Translations under genes and position numbers: made by a program | The notes under the pieces: model-generated | The model's input: only the letters and a program-made list of their open reading frames with translations | Database searches by the model: none | What the model was told of the DNA's origin: nothing | Source of the DNA: a virus | Taxonomy: Duplodnaviria; Caudoviricetes | Strand: one strand, 5' to 3' | DNA length: 48,830 nt | IMG/VR virus record: IMGVR_UViG_3300038318_000308 | Span: 1-48,830 of that record | Part shown: piece after piece, positions 1-48,830 of the stretch | Position numbering within the stretch: the first letter of the stretch is position 1 | How the letters are laid out: the number at the start of each line of letters is the position of its first letter

Positions 1-819
1 AACTCCTATTTTTGGGTCTTGACACATTTTACCAAGCAAGTTCCAGCCTATATCATCGAAATATTTCCATTCACAAGTTTTAATCTTATATCCACTATTT
101 TGTAAAATATTTTTAACACAAGCAACAATTTCATTTGGACCAGTTCCTGATTTTGTTACACCCATTTTTTTAGCTAAATAACTTTCGGAATAATATACTC
201 CAGTTAGTTCATATAATATTTGTTGTACCATATTTGCACTACAATACCATAAAGTTTCTTGTTTCATGTTTCCATTAGAGTAATATCTTGGATTTTTATA
301 ACAATCTACATTTGGAATTTCAATAGTTGTATTACAAGATTTTGTAGTGGTGGTTATATAATTAGGTTGTCTTTTATTTTTGCTTACAAAAGTATTATAA
401 TTTTTCAACATATTTTTATATGTAGAATAATTAATATAATCATACATAGTTGTCATGTCTAAATATACATGAGTTGTATCATTTAATGTACCTTTGAAAG
501 CATCTACTCTTGCTTTCATATCTAAAAATGTTTCAAGAGGTACTTTAACATTTTTATCATCAATTGGCCCTGCATTTACGGAAATTTGTAAAGAAGTTGG
601 TTCTTTATTATATTTGCTAACATATGCGTTATATCGAACTAACATATTTTTATATTTGTAATATAATACATATTCTGCTTTTGTGTCATAATCTAAATAA
701 ATTCTTCTTTCATCAATTGGTTTTCCGCCTTGTTCTATATATTTGTTGACACGAGATTTCATGTCTTTAAAAATTTTAATATCTATTTTCTTTTCATTAT
801 TTGTTAAATCTGTTACCAT
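1..819 (-). CDS. Endolysin, pseudomurein endoisopeptidase (pseudomurein-binding repeats + C39-like peptidase, PeiR-like); 3' end runs off the window
   Basis: Hand translation from ATG at 819 is open to base 1 (MVTDLTNNEKKIDIKIFKDMKSRVNKY...). Four PMBR-like repeats (FKDMKSRVNKYIEQGGKP; YKNMLVRYNAYVSKYNKEPTSL; FLDMKARVDAF; YKNMLKNYNTFVSKNKRQPNYI), then a C39-type motif QETLWYC...SESYLAKKMGVTKSGT; GTGA RBS upstream. Absent from the ORF track because no stop lies in the window. Confidence 0.85.
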   Translation of the reverse strand, partial: MVTDLTNNEKKIDIKIFKDMKSRVNKYIEQGGKPIDERRIYLDYDTKAEYVLYYKYKNMLVRYNAYVSKYNKEPTSLQISVNAGPIDDKNVKVPLETFLDMKARVDAFKGTLNDTTHVYLDMTTMYDYINYSTYKNMLKNYNTFVSKNKRQPNYITTTTKSCNTTIEIPNVDCYKNPRYYSNGNMKQETLWYCSANMVQQILYELTGVYYSESYLAKKMGVTKSGTGPNEIVACVKNILQNSGYKIKTCEWKYFDDIGWNLLGKMCQDPKIGV

Positions 820-11100: not shown

Positions 11101-13590
11101 TTGTATACTCGGGCTTAGTGTAAGCAATGGTGTTGTTATAACATTGACATCAGTTGTTAAATTAATACTTCCGGTATTTGATACTGTAACATCTAATGTG
11201 GCATTATCATTATTTGTTTGTAATAAATTAGTTGTTAATGTATATTTATTTGTTTTCTTTTTATAGTAAACATTTAATTTAATATTATATATATTTATTA
11301 TACAGTCTTGTTGTTGGTCTGTATTTGTTACTCCAAATCCGAAGTGAATTCCATTTTCAACTAAATAATCTCTTAAATCAACGCTTTCAATACCATTTGA
11401 TATTGTATCTTCAAATCCATATTTTTGTTCGTTATACCCATAGGTAATTGTTTTTCTTTTTTTATCAAATGAATCGGATTCATTAATTGATTGTATGTGT
11501 GAGACATACGTTCCTTGTTTAAGTTTGTATGTACCTATTCCATAATCTGCTGGCTCGGTAACTCTTATATATGTGTTTGTTTTTTTATCTATTGTTGTTT
11601 TTATATGTCCATCTAGGTTTCCACAAAATCCACAATATCTTGAATTACATTTACTACAATATAAGTGACCATGGGTTAATAAATCATCTTGTTTACATTC
11701 TACAGATTGTAATGAACCATATGTATCACAATGAGGACAATAATTTACCCATGTTTTATAATAATCACGATATTCTGTATATGTGTCATCATAAATACAA
11801 TAATTACAATATCCACTATCTTCTTTATCGCTTGTGGCTTTTCTATCTGGTCTATAAAATCCCATTAATGGTTGATAATTTACATCTGGGTCATATTTTT
11901 CATCAGGTATAAAGTAATCATAACCAATTCTATTATTTGTATATATATTTGTTCGTATATCGTTATATTTATTATCTGAATTATTTGAAGCTTCGGCGTC
12001 TAATAAGAATTCGAAACCAGTAATTAATACATCTTCTGGTAATTCTGATAAATCAAATAGTATGTTTACTAAATAACTTCTAAATGTTTCATCACTAATG
12101 TTTTGATTATAGTATTGATTTAACATTAATGACATTGGTTTACTATCATCATCATCTAATAAGTTTTCAATATCCTCGAAAGGTGTTTGTTTATATATTC
12201 CTGATGTACTATATTGTATTAAATTAGCTGGTTTCGCCGTTATTTTATTTTCTGTTTTTTCATTATTCGGAAGTCTACTTCCGGCATGAATCACTAAATC
12301 TTCAATATATGGGTCAATATCTTGTAAACTAATTATATTAGTTAGTTCTGTATCTTTTAAGAATACGTTATCTATATTATCCATATTCCATACGTATTCA
12401 TTAATTAATCTTCTTTCATACCAATAATCTTGTTCATCAATATATGGGTAATATGGTGGTAAAGTATTATAATAATCGTATTCGTCTATATCTTCTTTAT
12501 ATGTTCTACGTGATAATCCATATAATTGTCCCCATTTATCTAAATTTGTATTCATATGAAATGGATTAGTAATATCTTCAATAGCACTTTCTTGTGGGAA
12601 ACCACATGGAATTGATAAATCTAATCCGTAAAATGAAACAACGAAATAAAATTTTTTAGCATAAAATTGTTTAGTTAATCTATCATAAGTAATCCTTGCA
12701 TCATTAGGGTATTGTTTATGCCAGACATATCTCCAACCCTGAATGTTACTGTTAAATGGTGTATCATAAAATACATATAATTTAACTTCTTGAATTGGTA
12801 AAACAGACAATGTAGCAATTTTAATATTTTGTTCAACAGTAAAAACTGGTCTATTCATCGTAACATTTGTTTCAATATTGATAACATTAATAGCCGATAA
12901 TTTATCTCTGTTATCAGAATGAAGTATATTATCCAATTCTTTTTTAAATACTTCTTCTGTAAGATTTTTAGCACCAAAAATAGTATTAAAAGTTGATTCT
13001 AATCTTTGATATTCATTCCAATAAAGGTCTGCATAATTATCACATGTAATGCTTAATCTTACACATTCATTATGTAATGGAACAATTTCTTTAGCTTCAT
13101 TAGTGTTTAATGTATAATGTTGTGATGTTTCAAAATATTGAATACCTTTGCCGATTTTATTAACATCAACTTCCTCATCATTATAATAATATCTTTGATT
13201 ATCAATATCGATTAATAATGTTCCACTTTTTATAGAAAAAGGTAATGATATACCATTGACATCATTAATCATTATAGTGACATTATCAAGTGCTTTATCA
13301 CAATTAAAAATTAGTTCTATACTTCCTTTTGTTTTATAGAGAGGTGCCGGAAGTATATATTCAAAGGGGATATAATTAAAATTATATGTTTTCTGATATA
13401 TATCCTCTTTTTCTTGAGCATCGAGCCATACTTCGATTGGTTGCTCAAGTTTTGCTGTAAGTAGTGAATACGCGTAATAGTATCCTAATTCGCTGATAAA
13501 ATATCCTATAGCATCAAGAAATTTGTCTTCTTGCCACCATTCGGGAAAATTACGATACCAATTTGGAAAAGTTATAGTGTTAAAATCCAT
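2143..13590 (-). CDS. Giant baseplate-wedge/adhesin-like tail protein (~3815 aa): Ig-like repeats and beta-helix modules
   Basis: GAGGT RBS favours the start MDFNT at 13590 (ORF track starts at 13605). N-terminal LDKWGQLYGLSRR resembles baseplate I/XkdU-type wedge proteins; many Big_3-like repeats; three G..P...I/L..AL/I modules, NNWWG/YNWWG and several GGAI motifs typical of Methanobacteriales adhesin-like proteins; lies directly after the baseplate genes. Confidence 0.75.
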   Translation of the reverse strand: MDFNTITFPNWYRNFPEWWQEDKFLDAIGYFISELGYYYAYSLLTAKLEQPIEVWLDAQEKEDIYQKTYNFNYIPFEYILPAPLYKTKGSIELIFNCDKALDNVTIMINDVNGISLPFSIKSGTLLIDIDNQRYYYNDEEVDVNKIGKGIQYFETSQHYTLNTNEAKEIVPLHNECVRLSITCDNYADLYWNEYQRLESTFNTIFGAKNLTEEVFKKELDNILHSDNRDKLSAINVINIETNVTMNRPVFTVEQNIKIATLSVLPIQEVKLYVFYDTPFNSNIQGWRYVWHKQYPNDARITYDRLTKQFYAKKFYFVVSFYGLDLSIPCGFPQESAIEDITNPFHMNTNLDKWGQLYGLSRRTYKEDIDEYDYYNTLPPYYPYIDEQDYWYERRLINEYVWNMDNIDNVFLKDTELTNIISLQDIDPYIEDLVIHAGSRLPNNEKTENKITAKPANLIQYSTSGIYKQTPFEDIENLLDDDDSKPMSLMLNQYYNQNISDETFRSYLVNILFDLSELPEDVLITGFEFLLDAEASNNSDNKYNDIRTNIYTNNRIGYDYFIPDEKYDPDVNYQPLMGFYRPDRKATSDKEDSGYCNYCIYDDTYTEYRDYYKTWVNYCPHCDTYGSLQSVECKQDDLLTHGHLYCSKCNSRYCGFCGNLDGHIKTTIDKKTNTYIRVTEPADYGIGTYKLKQGTYVSHIQSINESDSFDKKRKTITYGYNEQKYGFEDTISNGIESVDLRDYLVENGIHFGFGVTNTDQQQDCIINIYNIKLNVYYKKKTNKYTLTTNLLQTNNDNATLDVTVSNTGSINLTTDVNVITTPLLTLSPSIQKPYKYTFSTDNLKPNDAISKSITVARGTSTIPDGSYDIFVNCGDKEKHEYLKLDSSGRIETQSYIKSAYSYFNNDNVKVTDLKIYVTAEDNIAINDGVVKVYIDDYLVKQNGLYEFNVKDSKVELTNIPIPENLAGLYQIKVKYLGTSKYATSNYVNTILISKEDTVTTISDISPVKQGAEFTLTAKVLTEKNQNVTEGQMYFYIVQDGKEEEIGHTNVDSTTSIAKLITSLPYATIGEYKIIARYRGTVAFGASQDETTLNIVGGDVNLFAFDYDVITGDIVHIAAKLLDMINRPVVSGTVDFYLDDVLIPGGNDVQINENGIASFIYNVSDSLIPDGTTPPITYTLKVVYKPDIDNTYNPITQTSTFRVDLLYTSVVTNDINATQGQTLGFICQVLTSNQVPAKQGTVDIYIDDLGTEPIASAEVDKYGYAKILYNTLSLTYEEWLELSKYAFKQDIQYATEEGAGLPALMVDDLYAIYDASSNEELTSLMMNKRSFSIEDGNLYVTLPSGDNTEVFILENGNLYIKKDKITESELLNNQYTYTAKYHSKLKYKSSEKTGTIIMNPKTDYLMSLLKYNQEYGNTVDIETTIEGNNEGVVKFFIDNDKIGETAIQSREINTDKTDPTKFETEYYATVSNYLINRPPSRYIIRAEHWINDEINCIVYNVLIISKIIPTLHLDINRVFAGVDSNLSSWITFDNGLNILQPTGEVSISLDGEEHFYHDITKLNDKIIDVIKMPDNFKNNHAITATYTGDDYVEPATAELKLIPTQLPTTIKFDSQKIARGNTCTLTVSVSANDDDVINEGYINLRSDLFGSLDPESTIDDKNINVKNGTATFVFDINKQQELKTYQLQVRYLGGLNYADSAMTLKQLIVIDEMDEVYIANQDINDNSHNVIGNDVEGAGTKESPFATINQALQCIKNNGTINILKGVYEVQDIVFKKDITIIGENDAILKQKNDKQLNITIMQGHSVIINNMSFDNIYEYDFIINGSTVGKDKGALSFNKCILGHNVNINNINGFLYINQSTVLCTLSGNIGTYVLDNNWWGTNEPNTFVQAHTDNWVTTEISTSLNKQATVGDVFTVNVDFINNKSHDIYPQRAVTMTSEQGEYSLYTGMLINNHFETTYSNALSNTLLYATVDDQVLELSIEDYIKNVEVKMQNIETPIGYETPIYALVVNADNKLIDSGIVEFYLNDKLIRTIEVNDGIAEFSIYLDENYTIDTTYNWVAKYHTIDKKYNAEVNSIMKVIADSDICFVADVEKSGTGSFKYPFNNMRAALSSNASTIYVKSGIYNDNDWLINRDVTIKAYSDDVVFNGGEKILSTQNKVTIDGVQFINYLGTTDLVNNVGTLIFNNTLFYQNQSYTTDADNIKTYKNIIYNEGNLEINNCAIVNNSNKFIDNVGTATAEYNWWGVDAPDFTKLLNNITVKYWICMDFITKIDPVNMGTTPTLIASLNHYTDGKEVYKLSTQFLPSRKGIFAIKTESINKEKGSLTPLIDYTDISNNAKTLYNSNEDANTFFVKLELADNTNYYNDDKITFKCYAHNYYGDPINQGDITFYIDGDELNTRQTLSGVSELTINNINLELGTHKIVAVYKDTTNYIYQSATIEGTFEIKLTPIILKNINITSTIFGLKLQADAEDNLGNSIVSEDIKLYLDDKEIIEYIGANTVKYKINNGKINEHVVYGKTEAGKHQLKITANPKTTYDTLNTIVSFNIALSPTNISYINTDSKILFFPETYSKDLVFNIQDETGINITDGTVDVYQDDKLLTQNPIHTTDGIIEIDNSILDKNNRIRQLTFIYKGDNHYYASSIQKFTINYGIYNVNIDGDAIVCQYGDDININATITNLDGDIVDSGLVSIYKTDINTKIDEPIIEHISCTGHISQKYNIHCPAGNYYIKLVYTNNENEYAQTETNILLSVYPRTVMFNSNNKISTISNVNIEETLDISSTKNITVNNGLVVAYLKNGKEYTKISTVPKNKENVYNDKITIDLNIPKLEIGSYIIKLEYINNNYFGNPEATAVDDNISQEIILTIHANETNITFNNTECYPIENNFQVNIIDSLRRNVMHGIVSFYQDGKKISECEVVDGIGKYILYPAEVRDITLIAKYVDSENVYSGSSATQEIKVNKIPIKSITSEDINVVNGETVKLHYDIESDIGQVEDGQLDIVINDQKVASTYISNNAGTLEFDVPLLAPDTYTMYFRYHDSKIYADTELLVNHNTFIVEKKDIIISMESITASVNETITLNPKFDRKLDGVAYCYILDKFIDVVSLDNQDNFTLTYKLPDDTKSTDNKITIKFSGNKYYNQTSATFDLIINQETSTISLEAISANVGNTITFNSTTTLPDNKRVDFYIENVIVTEGIVKDGKASATYILPYSKTKNTYKIYAKFSGSAIYVPIEANNTLTINPANIKDITFDTLDGYKAGALTINPTVIDENNNIVDEGRVSIGSDSIAINTTYSTILSDNPESNVIVSYNPENTDKFNTYSENDTLNLLLNDFTTSVVNDFTYTIGDYIDSPVTFIHPTTTNKINTAVTYQILNNDEVLFEKELINTDGNYQIQCYIPSNIYPGTYTTRYYIADNGVFNKYGGYGQITINSSDIIYVDNTKETQNYGNQENPMTSLLEAIKHLKNNGVIYLTGIYNEPIIIDRDLTINGNTATLQGNNDEPIITNNNNLTLNNVTLENNTSNTLSAGIINNKTLEVQNCQFNKLISSGTNFGGAIYSNGTIIVNQSKFNGNHGYAGGAIYLARQSLNSQITNCTFNSNISEYNGGAIYSYNADNLNITNNSFIMNVCNNKGGAIYITGNGNILQNLFQKNHTNSASSYGGAIAMVDGTVTTEYNIFESNTYYNDTNINEIYKNTGINDLAYNYFGNKYSKNDIMTHLNGEFNMTTWATITSSTNPSPAIINSEIEIDLMFKIEDEKSTYDAQKSFHDYAVNLNATSGTFTPTVSVIKNNHCTTKFISDTPTTIKLGDIDIIEVKE

Positions 13591-13636
13591 TATATAATAC
13601 CTCATTAATAATTATAGAAATTTATAATTTTTGTAT

Positions 13637-16723: not shown

Positions 16724-19612
16724 CTAACAATAACTACACCCACTTGGTTGGGTTGGTTCTCCTGCTTCAAAATTACAATTATTTGTATCATTAGAACCTT
16801 TATGTCTATTTTTTCTTGTTCCGTCCATGGTTTTCCATGTTCCATCAATACATACTCCACACATAAAATGATTATTTAAATGAATAATATAACAAGGAAT
16901 ATTTGCTACATCTAAACAACATTTTAATAATCTCGCCATATCTCCACAATTTAAACATTGTGCTGAATATGCTGTTGTACAATCTGAATATTTATTATCT
17001 CCATAACAATCATATGGGTGCGTACTTGTAATGTGCATATATATTTCAGCCGCACTCATATTAGCGGTTGCTTGTGCATAATTAGTTCCAGCAACTCCTA
17101 TTTGACACCAATCATCTGCTGTTGGGTTACCTAAACTTCCATCTGGCTGAACGGCCCAATCATTACATGATAAATCATGACTTGTAGTTGCATGAGTATG
17201 CCCATTTGTACATGGACCATAATCGGTTAAATTACAAGTATTACCCTCACTACCAGAACCACCCGAGCTTCCACCTGAAAATGTAATAGTAGCATTTACT
17301 GGGTCTTCTGGTGTATCTGGACCATATTTAAGTTCAACATCCATTTGCAAAGTATGTTTATTATTCCATTTAATTGTATATCCTTGTACAAAATATTGCT
17401 CTAAATTTTCATTTGTTTTAATCTTACTTTCATCAGTTTTTTTACTATCATTTGTAGATTTATCTGTACTACTAGCTGATGATGTTACGGTTGTTTTTGT
17501 AGTATCATCATCTTCGCTTCTACTAATACTTATAGGATTATCTACTTTAATAAATGAACCTGCTGTAATTCCTGCATGATATAAAGTACTAAATTTTAAA
17601 CCCATACCATAATCTCTTACATGTTGTGCCAATAATGCAATAGCACGAGACCGTACTGTCATTTCTTCATCGGTTTTGTCTTTTTTATCTTCAGTATCTT
17701 CTTCGGTATTAGTCGTACTATCTGTTGTTTGCGTATTTGTAGTTTGGGTATTAGTAGTTTGCGTTTTAGATGTAAGTGTTTCATCTTCAGTACTTGAGCC
17801 ATCAGCCTCTTCTCCACTACCTAATATATCAGCCATTGAATAATGATATGCTTGTTCACCATAAAGATTTACTAAATCATCATATTGTACTTTAATATCT
17901 TCATCAATTATAACAGTGTTATAAAAACCCGTATTTGCCCAACTTTCTTTTATATTATCTTTGGAGATATATCGTTTATCAATTATATTGATATCATCGC
18001 TAAATTTATCTGCATAGTTATAGAAATCTTTATATTGTAATAAATATGCGCAATTATTAGCTATAACAAATACAGAATCTGTTGCTCCACATATTTGTTT
18101 AATTAATCCCCAAAATGTTTTATCCGGTATTTTAATATATGTAGAACCAGCTCCTCCGGTTGTTTGAGTTCCGCTTCCTGCGGTACCTGATGGAATAAGT
18201 GCAATACTGCCATCTGAACAACTTGTTGCACTAGCCTTACAACCACCACAACATATACAGTAATCTGCATCACAAGCACCACAAGTAATTTCTCCTTCCG
18301 CAACACCTTTAGGATTATCTTCTAATTTACCAACAGCAGTACATTGCGGACAATAATTATAAAATGATTGAGTAACAGTTCCAGTACACTTACAACTACT
18401 ACTACAACAACATGAACGAGAGCCAGTAAATGTAATAGTTTCGGTTGTTGGACATTGTCCACCGCTACCGGGATAGTTAGTTCCATTTCCACCAGTTGAG
18501 CTACCAACTGCTCCGGTAGTTGCGGTATTACCAGAACTACTAGTGTTTCCAGTATTGGTATTATTGCTATTTGTATTAGTTGTATTAGTGCTACTGTTGG
18601 CAGTATTTGATGTTCCGGTAGCTCCAGTTGTTCCGGTAGATGATGTATCAGTTGTTGGCGTAGAGCTTGTGGTATTGGTTGATGTTACCTTTGGCTCTAT
18701 TGTAATAGCGTCATAATCAAATACAGCGGTTACAACATCAGAATCTTCATATATTTGGTCACCTTTAATAAGGTTTCGTATTTTTTTTTCAAATTCTTCT
18801 TTGTATTTATCTTGAAGTTTTTTGATTTCCTCTTCACTACTTTCTTCTGTTTGTTGTTGTGTATCGGTATTTGCAGTATTTGTACCATCTACATTAGTTC
18901 CGTTTACATTATTGGTTAATGTAGAACTATTGGTCGTATTAGTATTACTATTAGTATTATTACTATTACTATTATTTGCATTAGTATTTGTGTTATCGGC
19001 TGCTGAAGAATTTATATCTTCGTTTTGTGTTTGTGTATCTATTTCTCCATTAGCTCCAGTTGTTTGATTAGCGACTTGTTCAATAGCTTCTTGATTTTGC
19101 AATAATTTAAATTCATCAGGTGCTTCTGTAATCGTACTACTACCACTTTGAATAGAATATCCATCACCAGCAAATGTATAGTCATATAATGCTTTTATTG
19201 AATAACAAAATTGTAAGCCCCAACCTTCGCATATCGCTTGAAATGTATCAGTTACATGTTGTCCTGCTACTAATCCACTTCTAAATTCTTTAGGAACTTT
19301 ATTTTTAAATTTCCAACCAGCGTTTTGAAGATATATAAACATCGAATATCCCTTAAGTGAGACTTTCTCAACTCGACCAATAAATGAATTATGGTCTGCC
19401 TCATCGAGACTTAAGTTAACAACAACCGGTGATTCGGTTGTGCTCCAATATTTAAGGTTATCTTCGTTATATGGAGTTTTTAGAATCATAGTACCAACTG
19501 GTTCATCATTATCAATATCTAATTCCATAGCATCGAAATATGTATATGTTTGGTTATCATCAAGTGTTTTAACGATTACTTTTTCTTTTAGCATACCAAT
19601 TTGATTTAACAA
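16724..19612 (-). CDS. Baseplate hub protein (full length) with Cys-rich module and C-terminal transglutaminase-like peptidase
   Basis: 962 aa; FIGRVEKV...G.K.K hub-like N-terminus; T/N/S-rich linkers; C-terminal NCGDMARLL...IIHLNNHF...W..MD gives a candidate Cys-His-Asp triad. Confidence 0.65.
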   Translation of the reverse strand: MLNQIGMLKEKVIVKTLDDNQTYTYFDAMELDIDNDEPVGTMILKTPYNEDNLKYWSTTESPVVVNLSLDEADHNSFIGRVEKVSLKGYSMFIYLQNAGWKFKNKVPKEFRSGLVAGQHVTDTFQAICEGWGLQFCYSIKALYDYTFAGDGYSIQSGSSTITEAPDEFKLLQNQEAIEQVANQTTGANGEIDTQTQNEDINSSAADNTNTNANNSNSNNTNSNTNTTNSSTLTNNVNGTNVDGTNTANTDTQQQTEESSEEEIKKLQDKYKEEFEKKIRNLIKGDQIYEDSDVVTAVFDYDAITIEPKVTSTNTTSSTPTTDTSSTGTTGATGTSNTANSSTNTTNTNSNNTNTGNTSSSGNTATTGAVGSSTGGNGTNYPGSGGQCPTTETITFTGSRSCCCSSSCKCTGTVTQSFYNYCPQCTAVGKLEDNPKGVAEGEITCGACDADYCICCGGCKASATSCSDGSIALIPSGTAGSGTQTTGGAGSTYIKIPDKTFWGLIKQICGATDSVFVIANNCAYLLQYKDFYNYADKFSDDINIIDKRYISKDNIKESWANTGFYNTVIIDEDIKVQYDDLVNLYGEQAYHYSMADILGSGEEADGSSTEDETLTSKTQTTNTQTTNTQTTDSTTNTEEDTEDKKDKTDEEMTVRSRAIALLAQHVRDYGMGLKFSTLYHAGITAGSFIKVDNPISISRSEDDDTTKTTVTSSASSTDKSTNDSKKTDESKIKTNENLEQYFVQGYTIKWNNKHTLQMDVELKYGPDTPEDPVNATITFSGGSSGGSGSEGNTCNLTDYGPCTNGHTHATTSHDLSCNDWAVQPDGSLGNPTADDWCQIGVAGTNYAQATANMSAAEIYMHITSTHPYDCYGDNKYSDCTTAYSAQCLNCGDMARLLKCCLDVANIPCYIIHLNNHFMCGVCIDGTWKTMDGTRKNRHKGSNDTNNCNFEAGEPTQPSGCSYC

Positions 19613-21195
19613 CCTGACCCATCTCCTCCAGCAAATACAAAACAGCCAGATTTTGTTTGCATATTTACGAAATTAGTATCGAATCCATATCCACGATAAT
19701 CAATATCTGTCCAAACTCCGTTTTCCATTGTTTGTACACTTCTATGTGTACCACTTGGTGCGGCACTTGAGGCATATTGTAAAATACGAGCTTGAATTCC
19801 AGCGGCAGTTAATTTAGTATATAATAAATTACTCATTCCATAACAATCGGTTTTACCCTCATTATATGTACATTCAGCGTCAGACCAATCACAACTATAA
19901 TCATGTGAGTATCTAATTTTTTGTGCGCAATCTTGACAAATACTATCCTTAGTTCCGCCTGAACTAGTACCACTACTTGCTGAACCAGTTGGACTATTTG
20001 GTTCTTCAATTTCATCAGGAGATTCTGGACCAAATCCTAAATCTAAATCTACATACATTGGTTGATGTTTTTGTGTTCTAATACTGTATCCTTTTAAGAA
20101 ATAAAACTCATTTGTTTTTGTAAGTGGATTTTCTACAATATAAAAATTACCACCTAAATATCTAAATCTTTGTAATGTTCGAACACGTGTTTTGTTGTTA
20201 TACATACGAACATATTGGGCGAGATATGAATTTGCTTTATAACGAGCTGTTGCTTCATCAACTTCTTCATCGTCATATTCTTTATTTATTTCACCATATA
20301 TTGCTACTAAATCTTCATATCGTTCAGTTACTGTTCCACCTGAATAATTAACACTTACTGAATTATAAAATCCATCATTTGCATAATTAAATTGAAACGT
20401 TTCTGGGTCTAAATCTTTCTTATATATATGTTTGAATCCTTTGTTTTGATTAAGCAAGTTCATCCAATCAGTATATGGGAATAAAAACGCAGCATTACAT
20501 TCTACAATAAATACTGAATCAGTTGATGCACATATTCTTCTGATACAGTCATCAAAGGTATTATCTTTATATGCCATACCGCCCCCACCGCCACTTGATG
20601 TACCTGCGGCAGTAGTTCCAGATACCATTGCTACAACAGCCGGAGGAAAACCTTCTTCTGTAGTTGATTCACAATATCCTAATCCAGCTGATTGTAAAAA
20701 CTGTACTGGGTTATCTATACCCTGAAAATCACTACTTGAAAAATCATCATCATGTGCACGTTCTAAATGAGTAACGTTTTTAAGTCCATCTTTATATTCT
20801 CCTGAGTAGCAGGTAATAAATGCAATACCTGATTTATTGTTATTAGATGATAAGGCATCTTGATACCAAGAACTCGCCATATCTTGAAAAGTTCCGGCGC
20901 ATGCTCCACCTACGATACATACAATATATGTGTCTTTTTGTGTTTTAGCATTAGTTGAATGAGCATCTGGGTCAATTCCTCCATTAGATGCTGTATAACC
21001 TGCTTGGGTTAAAGCTGAACATACATTATCTATCCTAGTTCCATCTTCAGATTTTCCAGATATATTATCACTATTAACAGATACATTTCCACCAGCTGTC
21101 GTGCCAGTTGTACCCGTTGTTCCAGTTGTACCCGTTGTTCCAGTTGTTCCATTAGTATTTGTATTTGTACTACTATTTGTATTAGTTGTTGGCAT
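19606..21195 (-). CDS. Hub paralog, C-terminal half, with an extra N-terminal domain and a C-terminal transglutaminase-like peptidase
   Basis: 529 aa; aligns by eye with the C-terminal half of 16724..19612 (ICASTDSVF/ICGATDSVF, GFYNSV/GFYNTV, YEDLVAIYGE/YDDLVNLYGE); DCYGMSNLLY...HRSV...W.DID candidate triad. Confidence 0.65.
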   Translation of the reverse strand: MPTTNTNSSTNTNTNGTTGTTGTTGTTGTTGTTAGGNVSVNSDNISGKSEDGTRIDNVCSALTQAGYTASNGGIDPDAHSTNAKTQKDTYIVCIVGGACAGTFQDMASSWYQDALSSNNNKSGIAFITCYSGEYKDGLKNVTHLERAHDDDFSSSDFQGIDNPVQFLQSAGLGYCESTTEEGFPPAVVAMVSGTTAAGTSSGGGGGMAYKDNTFDDCIRRICASTDSVFIVECNAAFLFPYTDWMNLLNQNKGFKHIYKKDLDPETFQFNYANDGFYNSVSVNYSGGTVTERYEDLVAIYGEINKEYDDEEVDEATARYKANSYLAQYVRMYNNKTRVRTLQRFRYLGGNFYIVENPLTKTNEFYFLKGYSIRTQKHQPMYVDLDLGFGPESPDEIEEPNSPTGSASSGTSSGGTKDSICQDCAQKIRYSHDYSCDWSDAECTYNEGKTDCYGMSNLLYTKLTAAGIQARILQYASSAAPSGTHRSVQTMENGVWTDIDYRGYGFDTNFVNMQTKSGCFVFAGGDGSGC

Positions 21196-37520: not shown

Positions 37521-38958
37521 TTAGTTTTTTGTAACTTTTATATTAAGTGTTTCAGTATCACTATCAACTACTAAATCATCAATTGATACAGGAGCTGTAT
37601 ATCCAGTTGCACTTGTTAAATCAAGCGATACTGCATATGTTCCATAACTAACATTGCTTATTGTTGCTCCACCAGTTGAGCCGGTTCCGGATGCACTAGT
37701 TGAGAATGTAATTGTATTATGAGCTTTATTTGTTAGTGTTATAACAGCATTTTGGACTCCGGCATCTGCATTATCTAATACAGATACAGATACATTTCCA
37801 GTTTTTATAACCATATTATTAATATTAAATGTAGTTTCTGAACTGGATACGGTTATTGATTGTGTATTATCGTTATAATTTGCATTTGTAATTGTACATT
37901 GATATGTTCCATCAACTACTGTTGTTGAAAATACACCATTGCCATTTGTAACTCCATTATAAGTATTTTTATCATTTGATAATTTTACTGTTGCACCATT
38001 TATATTATCTGTACCATCACTAACGGTTAATGTGATGGTGCGCCCTACTGGGTTCTCAGGGAGATGGATAACCAGTTAATGGGTCCCAGCCTTCAGGGAA
38101 AGTACGTTTTTCATCAGTACGTGTAATTGCTATTTTTGCAATTGCGTCTGGTCTTAATACAGCTGGTTTTTCATATAAAGTTAAATCTAAAACATCTTCA
38201 CGAGTTTCGGGTACTCTATATCTTTCTGTATTCATAGTTCCCATTTGAACTAACCATAATGGGTCTTGAGTTGTATCAATTAAATAAACATTATCGCCTA
38301 CTTCAGGTATTTTCATAATTGCCATTCCATCAACAGACATTCCTACATCTCCGGTGTTAACTACACCCGGAATACCTGAATTAGCATATACTTTAAAGTT
38401 AGGGTCTTTTATTAAATCTGCATAACTTCTTGCAGACATAAGTATAACATTTGGATTTACTCCATATGGATTTTCTTCTAATTGTGTTTTAGTATCTACT
38501 ATATCATCAAATGTTAATGTTGCATTTGCGGATTGAACTTCGAGTCCTGCTCCTGCAAGTAATACGTTAGATATATCTACATTTTCTTTTTTCATCATTC
38601 TTTCTGTTGCACGACGAGCTTCGTTGTCCCAGTAATTTTGGTCGAACTTCATCATAATTTTTGCTTCGTCGGTCATTCTAATACCAGTACCGTTTTGTCT
38701 AAGATTTAAAGTAATATTATCGTAAACATCGTGTGCTTTTGGTATTTCGGAACCTTCAACAACTTCAACTGCTGTTCCAGCTGACCATCGACGTGGTAAT
38801 ACTATTGCAAAACTATCTGTATTAACAACTTTAACAAATTGTCTAAAGTCAGATTCTGTTTCTATATATTGTATAATATCAGTACTAAGTTCCGGGTCCC
38901 ATGCGTTATCATTTGAAGCTACAGCTCCATTAGCGAATTCTGCTAAACCTTTTGCCAT
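37521..38958 (-). CDS. Extended major capsid protein (~478 aa, two C-terminal Ig-like domains) via +1 frameshift at CCC-UGA
   Basis: MCP ends TCT CCC TGA G. The +1 frame is open from 38057 for 178 codons (ENPVGRTITLTVSDGTDNINGATVKLS...MVIKTGNVSV...KVTKN*). It has no start codon before 37814 and a TAA at 38078-76. Confidence 0.78.
38056..38958 (-). CDS. Major capsid protein (HK97 fold)
   Basis: 300 aa; P.LS..I, V.EG.EIP, G..I..TDE, NVILMS, AVLRPDAI patterns; GGTGA RBS; position after protease and decoration genes. Confidence 0.9.
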   Translation of the reverse strand: MAKGLAEFANGAVASNDNAWDPELSTDIIQYIETESDFRQFVKVVNTDSFAIVLPRRWSAGTAVEVVEGSEIPKAHDVYDNITLNLRQNGTGIRMTDEAKIMMKFDQNYWDNEARRATERMMKKENVDISNVLLAGAGLEVQSANATLTFDDIVDTKTQLEENPYGVNPNVILMSARSYADLIKDPNFKVYANSGIPGVVNTGDVGMSVDGMAIMKIPEVGDNVYLIDTTQDPLWLVQMGTMNTERYRVPETREDVLDLTLYEKPAVLRPDAIAKIAITRTDEKRTFPEGWDPLTGYPSP

Positions 38959-38971
38959 TTTATCATCTCAC

Positions 38972-39421
38972 CTATTGTGCTCCAATATAAGCATAGATTA
39001 TATTATTACTGTCGGGGTTACTATAAGCTGTTCCAACTTTTTTAGTAGCATCTGTTGTTTTAGCAAAAGCACCATCTGCTCCCAATGTAATCATATCTCC
39101 TTCTTTGATAGTAGCATCGCCCATAACATGTATTAAGCAATTTCTAGCCATCGTAAAATACTTATCTTTTGGTATTGTATAATTTCCATCAAAATATGGA
39201 ACTTTACTTGTTAAATTAGTTTCAGCTTCTCCAGAAACTGCAAATACTATTCCACCAAAGTTAGCTATATCAGTTGTTGCTTCGGCAACTTTATAACCAT
39301 CATTAGTTACATATACAGCTTTACCTACTTTTTCTTTTGAGGAAGTAGTACCGTATGTTTTAATAGCATCTACGATTTCTTCTCCAGCTTTAACTGTAAA
39401 TTGGTCTCCACTTGTATCCAT
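38972..39421 (-). CDS. Capsid decoration/cement protein
   Basis: 149 aa between scaffold and MCP; IKEGDMITLGADG...VGTA pattern of DUF2190/gpD-like proteins. Confidence 0.6.
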   Translation of the reverse strand: MDTSGDQFTVKAGEEIVDAIKTYGTTSSKEKVGKAVYVTNDGYKVAEATTDIANFGGIVFAVSGEAETNLTSKVPYFDGNYTIPKDKYFTMARNCLIHVMGDATIKEGDMITLGADGAFAKTTDATKKVGTAYSNPDSNNIIYAYIGAQ

Positions 39422-39434
39422 TTAAATCACCTAT

Positions 39435-40478
39435 TTAATTGAAAAATTTTTGAATATGAAATTTATTAGTTGGTTCTTTATCATTTTTTAAAGAATCTTT
39501 TTGTTCTTCACTAAATTGTCCAATTTGTGGAGCGTTTTTTTCCATATCTTCTAACATTTTTAATGTACTGTTAATAAATTTTTCGTCAGCATCTTCTAGG
39601 TCAATAGTTTCTGCAATACCAAATTTGGTTGCAATTTCATATACTTTATCGACCTTTGCAGATAATTCTGCATCTTTTTGTTCTTGTACTGCTTTATGGA
39701 ATTGTTCGAGTTCTACGGAAGCTTCTTTTAGTTCTTTCTCGAATTGATTTCTTTCTGCAGTAATTTTTGTAATAGCACTTAATTTTTCTTCTTTGAATTC
39801 CTTGAACTCTTTTTCTTGGTCTTCAAATTTTTTCTCGAATTTTTCAGTAACTTCAGATATTTCATTTTCTTTATCTATAAGAGTTTGCTGTAATTCTTCG
39901 ATTGTTTTTTCAGTCATAAAATCACTTTTTAATTCCTTAAATTCTTCTTTAAATTTTTGTATACTAAAATCTGCTCCAACTGTTGCATTTCTATCTTCAC
40001 CAGCATATACAAGAGATAATTCTGGAATTTCAGTATTTCTTACTAAAATATGAGTATCATCTTCATCTCCAAACCAATGTGAACATTCACTAAATTTTTT
40101 GTGACAAGTTGAACAGTATGGTTCAAAACTAAAACCAATTGATACAGAATCAACATACCCTTTCTTGATTTTTTCAATAAGTTTTGTCTCATCTGGGTCA
40201 ATTTCAGCACTATATTGTACCGCTTTAGTATCAGTTTCTGGGTCAGTAACTGTTTTAGCATTTTTTACTACACCGATGATATCGTCAATAGAGTCACTAT
40301 GGTCCTTCATCAGTTTAGCGTTTTTGATACTTTTAGAGCATTTACTAATTTCAGATGGCTCAAATTCAAAGATATCTCTATATCTTCCTTCATGAATTGC
40401 CATTCCGCTTAATAAAAACTCTTCATTATCTTTATTCAAAGAAAAAGTGTTGTTTATTTCAAACTTATTATCTTGCAT
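39435..40478 (-). CDS. Prohead protease fused to a coiled-coil scaffold
   Basis: LMKDHS (His) and DSVSIGF (Ser) motifs of HK97-type proteases, CSTC...CSH insert, ELSLV, E/K-rich coiled-coil C-terminus; AGGTG RBS favours the start MQDNKF at 40478 (ORF track 40586). Confidence 0.85.
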   Translation of the reverse strand: MQDNKFEINNTFSLNKDNEEFLLSGMAIHEGRYRDIFEFEPSEISKCSKSIKNAKLMKDHSDSIDDIIGVVKNAKTVTDPETDTKAVQYSAEIDPDETKLIEKIKKGYVDSVSIGFSFEPYCSTCHKKFSECSHWFGDEDDTHILVRNTEIPELSLVYAGEDRNATVGADFSIQKFKEEFKELKSDFMTEKTIEELQQTLIDKENEISEVTEKFEKKFEDQEKEFKEFKEEKLSAITKITAERNQFEKELKEASVELEQFHKAVQEQKDAELSAKVDKVYEIATKFGIAETIDLEDADEKFINSTLKMLEDMEKNAPQIGQFSEEQKDSLKNDKEPTNKFHIQKFFN

Positions 40479-40520
40479 AGTTACACCTTTTACAATGATA
40501 TAAGAATAATAAGTATTATC

Positions 40521-40552
40521 GGGTATATAAATACCCAAATTTTTTAACAAAA
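40521..40552 (-). promoter_or_regulatory. Late promoter for the capsid genes
   Basis: Minus strand TTTTTTGTTAAAAAATTTGGGTA-TTTATATA-CCC; TATA about 45 nt upstream of the ATG at 40478. Confidence 0.55.
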
Positions 40553-40557
40553 AATAG

Positions 40558-40845
40558 TTATTTTTTAGTGTAGAAAGTATATCCACCGCATCTATATTTA
40601 CGAGTTTTTGGATAACCCCTTTGTTTAAGATGATATGTTATACTTCTACCATTAACGTTTAAATTATTAGTTTTGTATTTATCAATTATTGTATTTGCAA
40701 TTTCGTTGCTTGTCGCCTTACCTTTATCATTAAGCACATCTTCAGCGACTTCATATAATTTATTATAAGAATTAATAGATTGTTTCTTACTCACGGATAA
40801 CATCCCAGACATGATGATTATATTGATTGATTTGTTTACTTCCAC
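40558..40845 (-). CDS. Small basic winged-helix-like DNA-binding protein
   Basis: 95 aa; ATSNEIANTI...GRSITYHLKQRG helix-turn-helix pattern with a C-terminal wing; start uncertain. Confidence 0.5.
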   Translation of the reverse strand: MEVNKSINIIIMSGMLSVSKKQSINSYNKLYEVAEDVLNDKGKATSNEIANTIIDKYKTNNLNVNGRSITYHLKQRGYPKTRKYRCGGYTFYTKK

Positions 40846-40941
40846 ATTCGGGACATATCTTTAATACTTTATCGGATAATATTTGTTTCCCGCAATTATC
40901 ACATTTGTTTAATATTAAATTTTCTTGAATCGTCAAAATAA

Positions 40942-42393
40942 TCACTCTTGGTCTTTTTGGTCTTTTGTATCTTCAGGCGTACCCTTACCTGACTTATCTC
41001 TTGGTGTTTTGTCGTTACTTTTTGCATCTGGATTATCAGAAGCAGACTTTCCGGAACCTGATGTATTTGTAGTATCGGTTGTTGGTTGCATAGCAATTTC
41101 TTTTAATGAACTATCAACAAATTCTAAATCTTCAACATCAATTGCTTGGCCTCTATATCCTAATTGAGCTCTTGCTTCATTTCTAGATATTAACCCATAC
41201 TTAACAGCTGGGAATATCCAAGCAGCAGCATCAGAGTTTGCTTCAGCACTTAATACTGGAAATATTAAATAAATATTAAGATAATCATCACCTAAAATCT
41301 TACCTTGTGACTCAAGGAACGGTTTATAGAATTGTTCAATAAGCGCATCTGAGACTATCAACTGATAGTTTTGCAGGTCAGAAAGATATTGTGCAACTTG
41401 TACTTTGATTGCTGATAAATTATCTGCTTTTCCACCTAATAATTGGAACGGTACTGTAAGGATTCCTAAAGATTCTTTAAGCTCTTGTAAAATCTCTGGC
41501 AAATTATATTGACCTTGTGCTGCCCCTACTACGTCTGTTGTAATTCGTGCATCACTAATAATATCATTTGAATATTCATATTGGTCTTGTATAGACTTTA
41601 CGATATCATTTAACTCTTGGTCAGATAATTCTTGGTCTTCTTCTGCTTCTACTAACCAATGAACTATTGGTACAGCAAATTTATCAACAATTTCTGCAAT
41701 ATTTAGTTCTGTATTTAATAATAAATGTAAAGTTTCTACTAAACTACCTAATAATGAGCGACCATATACATTATCTAATCCTCTATCATAAGCAAAGCAT
41801 AATATGTCTTCTTTTGGTACATTAACATCACTATTTCCTCCAGAATAAGTCCAAGAATCAATTTTTCCATCTTTTATGACTGGTTGTACGTACTGTGGAT
41901 GAATATTGAAGATATTATCGGGCCTATCATTCTCTTTATCGCCAATATATGTAAATATTGTACCATATAATAGCATATATACGAAAATTTCCTTTAACTG
42001 ACTTCTTCTTAAATTTGCATGATATTGTGAACATAATAACTCTAAATCAGGCATTCTGTTTCCATCTAAATCAAAAATTTGCACATTATACATATCTGGA
42101 ACACAATTTGATGCTATTTTATTAAATAATCTGTTTAATATGGTACTTTCATATAAACCATCTATTAAATCGTAATCTAAATCATCAGAACCGTATATAT
42201 CATTATATGAAGCAAATCCTTGCGCATATGTTTCTTTCGTTAATCGTGAGACATCGGTACTAAATTTCTGTATTTTGTTTTTTTTTAAATTATTTGTTTC
42301 TTTATCTAAAGTCTGCGGCGAGATGAAGTTTTTAAGTCTCTGGAACCGTTGGCTATTCTTCTTTGTTGTTTTTGATTCTGATTTCTTTGCCAT
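40942..42393 (-). CDS. Portal protein
   Basis: 483 aa directly after terminase; LLYGTIF, NIHPQYV, YGRSLL, LTVPFQLLG and GLISRNEARAQLG portal motifs; GGAG RBS. Confidence 0.88.
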   Translation of the reverse strand: MAKKSESKTTKKNSQRFQRLKNFISPQTLDKETNNLKKNKIQKFSTDVSRLTKETYAQGFASYNDIYGSDDLDYDLIDGLYESTILNRLFNKIASNCVPDMYNVQIFDLDGNRMPDLELLCSQYHANLRRSQLKEIFVYMLLYGTIFTYIGDKENDRPDNIFNIHPQYVQPVIKDGKIDSWTYSGGNSDVNVPKEDILCFAYDRGLDNVYGRSLLGSLVETLHLLLNTELNIAEIVDKFAVPIVHWLVEAEEDQELSDQELNDIVKSIQDQYEYSNDIISDARITTDVVGAAQGQYNLPEILQELKESLGILTVPFQLLGGKADNLSAIKVQVAQYLSDLQNYQLIVSDALIEQFYKPFLESQGKILGDDYLNIYLIFPVLSAEANSDAAAWIFPAVKYGLISRNEARAQLGYRGQAIDVEDLEFVDSSLKEIAMQPTTDTTNTSGSGKSASDNPDAKSNDKTPRDKSGKGTPEDTKDQKDQE

Positions 42394-43847
42394 ATGCTAT
42401 CTCCTTTTATTTGGTTTGCACCTATTTTAAACCCAGTATTTCTTACTAATGGGGTATTTTTAAAATTTAATGGAAAATTAAGATTATAATTACATAAATT
42501 TAACGCATCAACGAAGTCGTCTGATGTACCTTTATGATAAACAATATTACCAGTATCAGTACTTTCACGTTTATATGACTCCATTTCTCTAACTAATTTT
42601 GGGTGTGGAACTATTTTATTGGTACCATTTTCAAGTGCTAATACAGATGCTTCAACTAATGACTTCTTACTTTCTTTAGAAAACTTAAATTCTTCTGTTT
42701 TATATGAAGTTTTACCCTCAATAAGCTCTGAAAATGCTAACCCAACACCGGTTGCATCAAAAATTAATCTTTTAAAGTTTGGAAATTTTTTCGGTATTAC
42801 TTTTATTAAATATTTTGCAATATTATCATATCTTGTCCCTAATGGGAATGGTTTATAGTATTTTGTTAATAATTTGTTATCTTCTGTTACCTCTGCGATG
42901 ATAAGAACCGAATTATTACGTTGTTTACCAATATCTATACCACCAACACATAGTTTATCGCTATAAAATCCGTCTGGTAATTCATCAATTGATGCTGATT
43001 TTATTAATTCATCACTATATACAACACTCAAATCATCTAAAAATTGAAGACAATATTCTTGTTTAAACTCAATTGTATCTAAAATATCTAAATCTTGACG
43101 TAATTCTTCAATACTAATTCTCGGTGTACCTGATTTAATAATTTGGTCATTATCATTCATAAAAGCAGTTGGTTTTTTAAAAACAGTAAATAATCCCTCG
43201 CCATCTGACTCTACCATATCATCATTTTCATATATTTTTTTTGCATTATAGATAGATTCAAAGAAAAAACCTCTTTTTGACCGTGGTGTCCCTGCTAAAA
43301 TAAGCTCAGAACGTCCAGTTTGACCACGAAAAACCGGCAAAATTTTACTAAATAATGTATCTGATACATCTTGCGCTTCATCAATAATTAGCAAATTAAC
43401 CCCAGAACCTATAACGCTTGAAGTATTTTCTTTACCTCCGGCGGTTCTAAAATCAATTTTTGACTTATTTATGAATTTTTTAGTAAATACATTATCAACT
43501 AATAGATAATCAAGCACTACTGCCGAACGTGAAATCATATCTGATACTGTATCTGCTAAATCACGTGACTGACTTTGGGTCGGTGAGAGTATATATATTT
43601 TATAATATTTATTGAAGAAACATTTCCATATCGAATACATAGCTACTACTAAAGATTTACCCATACGACGTCCTAAGAAATATACTTTCATAGCATCTTC
43701 ATCTCGTAACATAAGCTTTTGGTGGTCTTCTAATTTATATAAGTGACCACTATCATTAAATAACATATGTTCTACGAAATATACTGGGTCTTGATAACAT
43801 TTACGTAAAAAATTAACTTGCTCTTCTTCAAATTCCAAAGATTTCAA
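42306..43847 (-). CDS. terL: Terminase large subunit
   Basis: Walker A GRRMGKS, Walker B LLIIDEAQ, coupling motif GTP, FKQEY, RNase-H-like GIDIG, DATGVG and DDFVDAL; TTG start uncertain. Confidence 0.93.
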   Translation of the reverse strand: MKSLEFEEEQVNFLRKCYQDPVYFVEHMLFNDSGHLYKLEDHQKLMLRDEDAMKVYFLGRRMGKSLVVAMYSIWKCFFNKYYKIYILSPTQSQSRDLADTVSDMISRSAVVLDYLLVDNVFTKKFINKSKIDFRTAGGKENTSSVIGSGVNLLIIDEAQDVSDTLFSKILPVFRGQTGRSELILAGTPRSKRGFFFESIYNAKKIYENDDMVESDGEGLFTVFKKPTAFMNDNDQIIKSGTPRISIEELRQDLDILDTIEFKQEYCLQFLDDLSVVYSDELIKSASIDELPDGFYSDKLCVGGIDIGKQRNNSVLIIAEVTEDNKLLTKYYKPFPLGTRYDNIAKYLIKVIPKKFPNFKRLIFDATGVGLAFSELIEGKTSYKTEEFKFSKESKKSLVEASVLALENGTNKIVPHPKLVREMESYKRESTDTGNIVYHKGTSDDFVDALNLCNYNLNFPLNFKNTPLVRNTGFKIGANQIKGDSIWQRNQNQKQQRRIANGSRDLKTSSRRRL

Positions 43848-47319: not shown

Positions 47320-47352
47320 CTATTTAATACTTTTTTTTTAAAAAAATTAATT

Positions 47353-48425
47353 GTTCGTAAATGTACGAACAGTTTTTAGATCTTTTTTTTGTTCGTATAA
47401 GAACGAATTGTTCGTATAGAGACGAACTTTTTTTAGATCTTTTTTTTATTCGTATAAGAACGAACAGTTTGGTAAGAATAAAACTGTTTTAAGAAGAACG
47501 AAGAATTAGTAAGAGTACGAACAGTTTGATACTATAAGAACTATTTTAGAGGTCACGAATGTTCGTATAAGAACGAACAGTTTTTAACACTACGAATTGT
47601 TCGTATACCATAAAACTGTTTTTAGAGGAACGAACTGTTTGTAAGAGTACGAACAATTTAATAGTTGCCGAACTGTTCGTAAAGAGGCGAATTGTTTGTA
47701 TACTAACGAACAGTTAGTTATCTGGCGAATTGTTCGTAAAGAGGCGAACAGTTTTGATACCTACGAATTGTTCGTAAGAAGACGAACTATTAGTTACCTG
47801 CGAAACTGTTCGTATAGAGGCGAACATTTTAAATAAAAATTAGAATGTTTGTTAAAATACGAACTATTTTTTTGCCGAAAAAGTTGTTCGTATAGAGGCG
47901 AACTATTTAAACAAAAATTGAAATGTTCGTATATATAAAAACTAATTTTTGAGATCTTTTTTTTGTTCGTATAGATACGAATTATTAGTATTTTATGAAA
48001 CTGTTCGTATGTGTACGAATTGAGGGATCTTTTTTTTGTTTCATATGTTACGAACTTTGAAACATTTTTTTAAATTGTTTGTATATTTACTAATTGTTTT
48101 ATAAATATAAAATTTTTTAATTTTTTGTTAAATAGTTTGTATATATTAGAACTTTATAATATTTTTTAAGATTGTTCGTATATTTACGAATATTTTAATA
48201 TTTTTTTAAATTATTAGCAGATACACGAATTATAGAATATTTTTTGTAAAAATTCGTATAAATAGAAACAATTAAACTTTTTATTGATTTATTAGTATAT
48301 TGCCGAATTAATTGACTGACCAGTAGTCAGTGAATAGTTGCACCTGTAAACTGTTTGGTTTCAAAACTAACACTTGTTAGTTTGAGGTTTTGCAGATTTA
48401 CTAATTTATTCGTATATATAGAAAC
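47353..48425. repeat. Non-coding tandem array of degenerate 19-bp palindromic units GTTCGT-N6-ACGAAC-N
   Basis: 25 contiguous units from 47353 to 47826 in 19-bp register (one 18-bp unit at 47543), then recognisable units, often about 38-40 bp apart, decaying to about 48425. Confidence 0.9.
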
Positions 48426-48830
48426 AAGTTTTAGGTGAAAAACTTAAAAGCCACAATTACTAAATTGGCATAAATTGGTAGTTTGATGTAGGGCAAAATG
48501 GCACAAAATGGTAAAGTTGGCAATTACGATATTTCAGGTACTTTGCTCTGCAGATTATAGTACTTGCATGGGCAAGTAGTGTTTTGCTTGGTCATTCCTT
48601 GCAGTAAATGAAAAGGTGGTTTTTTTGGATTTTCAGATTTGCCAAATTGTAATACTTTTTTAGTATTTAAGTATTACTTTTTTTTGGCAGTTGCTCGGAT
48701 TTGGCTGTAAATGGCTGAGATTGCTTGTTTTTGTCTGAATCGGCCGGATTGGTGGCCAATCAAATTTTGAGGACTTGTACATTTTTTTTGTAAATTAAAG
48801 CAAAATTATTACCAATTGGCATAAAATTAT

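Follow-up and report, generated by a model that had tools for sequence, protein, structure and literature searches.

In the MSTV1-like viruses of Methanobacteriales ('Usuviridae'), a -1 frameshift at A AAG GAA is predicted to add an immunoglobulin (Ig)-like domain to the capsid protein, and in one member of the group the Ig-like domain is fused in frame, according to the available text of the report on these viruses (PMC11375127). Shifts in the +1 direction are on record for phages of Gram-positive bacteria. In the Listeria phages PSA, A118 and A500, a +1 shift occurs at CCC_UGA in the tail-shaft genes, and the capsid gene of PSA shifts +1 at CCC followed by the sense codon UCC, with a pseudoknot (PMC5009743, as far as its accessible sections go); the CCC-stop site that a first-pass annotation of the DNA considered here had cited from PSA is therefore that of the tail-shaft gene and not that of the capsid gene. 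In the tail tube of Bacillus phage SPP1, a +1 shift at CCCUAA gives rise to gp17.1* beside gp17.1 in a 3:1 ratio and adds an FN3-like extension (PMC6316719, available portion). For archaea, a +1 shift has been predicted for the tail assembly chaperone of the haloarchaeal virus HSTV-2 (PMC5009743, PMC8211752), which a review of 2021 lists as unconfirmed, and the accessible part of the same review gives the number of programmed frameshifts demonstrated in archaea as one, in the -1 direction (PMC8211752). In the literature searched, which most subscription journals lie outside, no +1 capsid shift in an archaeal virus was found. The first-pass annotation had known of no description of such a shift for a Methanobacteriales virus; this must be narrowed to the +1 direction, since the available text on the MSTV1-like viruses already predicts a capsid Ig frameshift of the -1 kind (PMC11375127).

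The locus presented here lies in a viral contig of 48,830 nt, which was analysed at its full length and is hereafter called the window. Judged from a CCC-UGA site at the end of the capsid gene and a start-less frame of 178 codons behind it, a fraction of the ribosomes of what is likely a methanogen very probably slip +1 and make a predicted 478-aa capsid protein with two Ig-like domains beside the 300-aa protein. Pfam and PHROG matches identify, in the window, genes for the terminase, the portal, the prohead protease and the capsid as well as for the sheath, tube, tape measure and baseplate J, a set that marks the virus as contractile-tailed. The major capsid protein, of the HK97 type, is encoded on the minus strand at 38056..38958 (300 aa, 33.4 kDa; PF05065, E 5e-6; phrog_10, E 2e-11; TIGR01554 above cut-off); of 50,697 deposited phage records, the one that matches it best is Methanobacterium virus PhiF1 (32.5%). 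Ahead of the gene, a Shine-Dalgarno-like GGTGA can be read off the upstream sequence at 38968..38972 (minus), and upstream of this, on the same strand, stands the head module (38972..43847), with a cement-like protein, a prohead protease/scaffold, a portal and the terminase large subunit, which match PF22758, PF04586, PF04860 (all below cut-offs) and PF04466 as well as PHROG head and packaging families.

The last codons of the capsid gene are CCA TCT CCC TGA, with CCC at 38061-38059 and TGA at 38058-38056 (minus). An upstream TAA (38078-38076) closes the +1 frame, which then stays open over 38075-37521 on the minus strand, for 184 codons from stop to stop and 178 from 38057. Its first ATG, GTG or TTG comes at 37814, past 81 codons, and an open stretch of 81 codons arose by chance in 40 of 20,000 dinucleotide resamples. 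No Shine-Dalgarno-like sequence precedes the start at 37814, where the upstream sequence is AT-only. The open +1 frame overlaps that of the capsid gene by six codons (38058..38075, minus), none of them a start codon, and, on the reading frames, this overlap is the sole place where this shift could occur. The predicted site, U-CCC-UGA-G, spans 38055..38062 (minus) and is placed by the conservation of CCC-TGA and by the contrast between CCC and the long frame among relatives. CCC, the last sense codon of the capsid gene, accounts for 19/392 proline codons (4.8%) in 29 genes of the window, and the 60 nt round the site have a GC content of 57% against 30% for the window, placing them in the top 0.03% of 60-nt windows. 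Read in the +1 frame from the site, the product is 478 aa and 51.8 kDa, as compared with 33.4 kDa for the unshifted capsid protein. In all this the first-pass annotation agrees with the recomputed values, having named the capsid end, the upstream TAA, the 178 open codons, the first start at 37814, a rare CCC in GC-rich surroundings, and predicted products of about 51 and 33 kDa; it had given no strand, and its numbers hold for the minus strand. Two other ways past the capsid stop were rejected, namely stop read-through, the capsid frame being shut again within 10 codons past the stop, and an MSTV1-type -1 shift (A AAG GAA, Ig domain in the -1 frame), the -1 frame being shut four codons past it.

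The extension consists of two domains in one frame. Ig-like domain 1, which ORF callers missed, fills the 81 codons without a start (37815..38057, minus) and matches PF13620 over residues 7-76 (E 2e-12), a family found in the extensions of 15 of 18 aligned relatives. Ig-like domain 2 (37521..37814, minus) is the called 97-aa ORF and matches PF17802 over residues 88-177 (E 1e-7). An AlphaFold model of the extension, built with an 18-row alignment, has a mean pLDDT of 93.5 (domain 1, 89-98 per block) and beta strands only; the fold from the single sequence is poor (pLDDT 51.5). Among solved structures, the best matches to the model are Gram-positive surface proteins with CnaB-type repeats (TIE protein, SdrD, pilins), and the viral structures matched are baseplate, fibre and structural proteins; by sequence, neither the capsid protein nor the extension matches any solved structure. 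From the Pfam and structure matches, both domains are predicted to be Ig-like sandwiches of the CnaB/prealbumin, or transthyretin-like, type, which refines the Ig-like beta-sandwich of the first-pass annotation. The extension is not uniform across close relatives. One locus (L014) encodes a capsid protein identical to that of the window, yet differs at 34% of synonymous sites in domain 1 (37815-38057), and contig 4 of run X16 diverges from the window over 37866-37983, so that, going by these sequences, the extension seems to have been swapped or to vary far faster than the capsid. Another arrangement occurs at L037:1156-1854, where a +1 frame of 233 codons encodes one Ig-like domain and then a different second domain.

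Comparison across the family was based on 48 capsid loci, the window and PhiF1 among them, drawn from collections of viral, metagenome and genome sequences. Five were dropped as truncated, either within the gene or on its 3' side, and the remaining 43, grouped at about 90% nucleotide identity, give 25 clusters. A long +1 frame follows the stop in twelve of these and nothing does in ten, and in the other three the domain is joined to the capsid in frame. CCC occurs within the last six codons in 12/12 long-frame clusters, the window's included, and in 0/13 of the others (Fisher p 2e-7, a value that overstates independence because the clusters share ancestry). Proline as such is common at this position in the clusters that lack CCC, 11/13 of which have it within the last ten codons, encoded by 20 CCA and 4 CCT; in the bodies of related capsid genes CCC makes up 1 of 397 proline codons. 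The codon that follows CCC in the 12 long-frame clusters is TGA in three, AGC in six and AGT in three, and the base before it is T in ten and C in two, as against A before 151/397 of the body proline codons. With a serine codon (AGC/AGU) after CCC in 9/12 clusters, the family signal is Y-CCC-(UGA or AGY), which is wider than the 'CCC-stop' that the first-pass annotation had expected to find conserved ahead of a long +1 frame; the CCC part of that expectation is borne out in every long-frame cluster and the stop part in three of them. Within the window's own type, CCC-TGA is present in 7/7 loci, at 68-100% capsid identity.

On the capsid tree, the three CCC-UGA clusters need two origins, the long-frame type appears in several parts, and seven changes are required to account for all four states. 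In-frame fusions of capsid and domain were seen in three clusters with DNA and in four of the 120 protein homologues listed, 27 of which carry serine-proline-type C-terminal tails as in the frameshift loci. Two of the fusions mark where the shift happens: L010 has ACT CCA GGC where the frameshift locus L040 has ACT CCC AGC, which amounts to one C lost at the site, and L049 retains the motif in full but reads into it in the +1 frame. The central proposal of the first-pass annotation, that a +1 shift at CCC adds two Ig-like domains to part of the capsid subunits, thus finds backing in conservation, in the codon contrast and in the in-frame fusions, and is retained as a prediction.

The Ig-like frame might instead be translated apart from the capsid gene, from a non-standard start (e.g. 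ATC 38036) by re-initiation or translational coupling, or yield domain 2 alone from ATG 37814. Gene callers do give 97-aa and 153-aa products, these truncated calls being the only database entries for the extension, and 4/4 close relatives compared retain the Met with which domain 2 begins. In 10/12 long-frame clusters, ATG, GTG or TTG codons also occur where the two frames overlap ahead of the capsid stop, scattered from -7 to -57 codons, so that separate initiation is possible in those ten on sequence alone; no start codon was found in the overlap in the window's cluster or in that of L004. Against this, the domain 2 ATG has no Shine-Dalgarno sequence in any of the four relatives, and Met also closes the last strand in several single-domain relatives, so that the domain 2 Met can be a residue of the fold. 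A separate protein would moreover leave unexplained the link to CCC in all 12 clusters, the in-frame fusions, and the purifying selection seen in the 81 start-less codons: in six pairwise comparisons among four close relatives, dN/dS is 0.40-0.61 for domain 1, 0.21-0.66 for domain 2 and about 0.2 for the capsid, which indicates that coding selection on domain 1 is weaker than on the capsid but real. Separate translation is accordingly regarded as improbable. The long form could also be reached by another route, such as polymerase slippage at the C run, a -2 shift, or an out-of-frame A-site tRNA-Pro on the preceding codon, and the pyrimidine before CCC in 12/12 clusters does indicate that the upstream codon matters somehow. 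That codon varies, however (UCU, AAU, CGU, ACU, CCU, UCC), and offers no common re-pairing for a -2 shift. The run comprises three C only in most loci, and a run of three C is too short for usual transcriptional slippage; RNA-library contigs, which span the locus and from which level and strand are not readable, also have no indel, though contigs drop rare variants. Taken together, these other routes appear slightly less probable again than a separate protein.

As a last alternative, the two frames might owe their separation to faulty assembly, or to a recent mutation that interrupted a capsid gene once fused in frame with the Ig-like domains, a kind of fusion that does exist in relatives. Among 24 sequencing runs listed, 20 contain part of the region and eight were examined; the junction is spanned, with no gap, by contigs of X2, X7, X8, X15, X1, X12 and X16, but not by those of X17. 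The bridging runs come from five independent studies (X15 and X16 belong to one) besides X1, the possible source, and the junction is identical in the contigs of all six. An assembly indel, for which the first-pass annotation had proposed a check by read mapping, was on these grounds rejected, the check having used contigs and not raw reads, so that rare variants would be missed. The same junction recurs in relatives whose capsid proteins are 82% and 68% identical, and the downstream frame is intact and under selection. Strain differences near the site fall upstream of it on capsid-frame third positions (38068, 38071) and downstream on +1-frame third positions (38049, 38037, 38031), and all five are synonymous. 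An assembly error or broken fusion is therefore the least probable of the three alternatives and very improbable in itself. The reading preferred here remains that of a conserved +1 frameshift, which is real and probably translational.

In this +1 frameshift, a peptidyl-tRNA-Pro would occupy the P site on the rare CCC as the A site waits on UGA or, in most relatives, on AGC/AGU; AGU is a slow codon in yeast +1 sites. In the window the tRNA-Pro would re-pair from CCC to CCU, the next codon would be GAG, and translation would go on in the +1 frame; in the AGY type the re-pairing would be from CCC to CCA. Re-pairing of the P-site tRNA-Pro from CCC to CCU or CCA is the sole one common to all loci. 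From this arrangement we infer the slip itself as well as its rate. The long form would then be packaged into capsids with its domains displayed outward, and the extension may bind cell surfaces or particles.

As to why CCC should be slippery, it can be speculated that the host reads it with tRNA-Pro(UGG), a tRNA-Pro(GGG) being absent or scarce. In published tables, 9/10 Methanobacteriales genomes have no tRNA for CCC and each genome has one or two tRNA genes for CCA (PMC6000648 Table S3), and in Methanobrevibacter ruminantium CCC makes up 3% of proline codons, as against 12-23% for GCC, GTC and ACC among theirs (PMC6000648 Table S4). In Methanobacterium formicicum, CCC makes up 38.5% of proline codons, yet the tRNA for CCC is absent in the table (PMC6000648), so that the table is suspect for this species and the gene may simply have been missed. 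No tRNA gene was found in the window, and no tRNA-Pro was among the tRNAs called in the stretches of relatives that were read. A virus-encoded tRNA was considered as a switch and set aside, given the small number of genomes: a viral tRNA-Ser(GCU) is present in G001, G004 and G006 and absent from the stretches read of G003, which is of the CCC-AGC type, and of G005. G006 has 18 tRNA matches in all, and tRNA genes at L058:3008-3118, L059:349-517 and L066:4401-4521 carried by two relatives, have short inserts in the anticodon loop which, on visual inspection, resemble archaeal introns.

Weak candidates for a 3' stimulator lie at 38013..38052 (minus), in the form of a 3-bp stem at 38052-38043, of only -3.6 kcal/mol, and a longer stem from near 38041. 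The fold of 38057-37990 has a z of -2.2, a value also reached in L004; L018 has none. Several AGY-type loci have short hairpins that begin 6-9 nt past CCC. The 3' fold is better than that of synonymous recodings (p<=0.05) in 8/12 clusters, a count to be read with the facts that the null ignores GC content and double coding and that the clusters are related, and no conserved 3' structure was found across the 12 long-frame clusters. An upstream Shine-Dalgarno stimulator of the RF2 type was rejected, since the 4-mer occurs in 4/12 clusters only and is absent from the window. A scan for promoters and terminators returned fewer promoter-like sites than in shuffles and no terminator.

The main marker of the host is a protein with pseudomurein-binding repeats, endolysin-like, which is encoded at 1..819 (minus) and cut by the window end (PF09373, E 1e-13, two repeats) and is 70% identical to a protein of L051. 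PF09373 occurs in 5/5 large relatives, of 136-152 kb, and in 0/14 control genomes. The host is therefore likely to belong to Methanobacteriales, in keeping with the methanogen-virus reading of the first-pass annotation. Two relatives, L048 (147 kb) and L049 (41 kb), stand in genome bins titled Clostridia bacterium, which were the sole hits in the genome collection, and one capsid homologue is labelled Bacilli; these labels are likely binning errors. PCNA and MCM were each found in 0/5 relatives, and this absence points to neither archaea nor bacteria. Several further genes of the window deserve mention. Past the baseplate genes, two proteins of 3820 aa (2143-13605, minus) and 440 aa (824-2146, minus) contain group 3 Ig-like repeats (PF16640) and are likely adhesin or fibre proteins. 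Between the tape measure and baseplate genes, a 529-aa protein (19606-21195, minus) has a C-terminal transglutaminase-like domain (PF01841) and is possibly a virion-borne pseudomurein hydrolase. The right end, about 1.3 kb at 47330-48660, has no ORF of more than 46 codons, and peptide words that recur in its short frames suggest repeats.

A second recoding site may exist in the tail module. A gene of 189 aa in the position of a tail assembly chaperone (31937-31186, minus) ends in A AAA AAG TAA and has a start-less -1 frame of 63 codons directly before the tape measure gene, a layout from which a classical G/G-T -1 frameshift is likely. With a -1 shift in the chaperone and a +1 shift in the capsid, one virus would use both directions. 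In relatives, the downstream domain of the chaperone (L061-L065) lies in the -1 frame in G001 and G006 and in the +1 frame in G003, G004 and G005, so that the direction flips inside one family; the last three share TTT CAA AAH TAG, a sequence compatible with slippage by +1 from UUU to UUC. A tentative wider model, to which we would give somewhat less than an even chance, is that Methanobacteriales support efficient +1 shifting at Y-CCC through tRNA-Pro(UGG) alone, with the rate set by UGA or AGC/AGU in the A site, and that their 136-152-kb viruses tune capsid decoration by frameshift, fusion or loss and have flipped the chaperone shift between -1 and +1. If this model holds, no +1 signal would have been defined for an archaeal ribosome before this one, and its natural variants are ready to test.

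By analogy with described systems, the site works like those of PSA and SPP1 and its product is of the kind made at the -1 site of MSTV1. What is new here is the +1 direction and its signal on a likely archaeal ribosome, together with a family-wide Y-CCC-(UGA or AGY) that has natural fused and lost states. Since the conserved signal is short and occurs in natural on, off and fused variants, archaeal +1 recoding becomes directly testable by reporter. The locus also illustrates that gene callers truncate such capsid products, leaving databases with pieces of them, and, if the domains are displayed, pilin-like domains on the capsids of digester and rumen methanogen viruses could affect attachment to cells or particles.

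As far as the available parts of the cited reports allow the comparison, the Listeria phages resemble the window virus in having a low-GC genome, a +1 shift that extends a structural protein and a rare CCC (5% there and 4.8% in the window), and both of their site forms, with a stop codon and with a serine codon after CCC, occur in the window's family (PMC5009743). They differ in that their ribosome is bacterial, that the pseudoknot of PSA has no conserved counterpart found here, and that the serine codons here are AGC/AGU. With SPP1 the window shares CCC on a stop codon, a slip to CCU and a surface beta-sandwich as the extension; in SPP1, however, the protein is a tail tube, the host a bacterium, the stop codon UAA and the ratio measured (PMC6316719), whereas the window has a capsid protein and UGA, and its shift is predicted from sequence. 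With HSTV-2 it shares a +1 recoding predicted on an archaeal ribosome, in another gene and another host order (PMC5009743, PMC8211752). The closest likeness in product is to MSTV1, also a Methanobacteriales virus with an HK97-type capsid, in which an Ig-like C-terminal extension on part of the subunits is predicted, as it is here, and which likewise has a fused relative (PMC11375127). In contrast to the -1 shift at A AAG GAA and the one domain of MSTV1, the window has a +1 shift at CCC and two domains, in a virus that carries a tail-sheath gene and whose near-complete relatives measure 136-152 kb.
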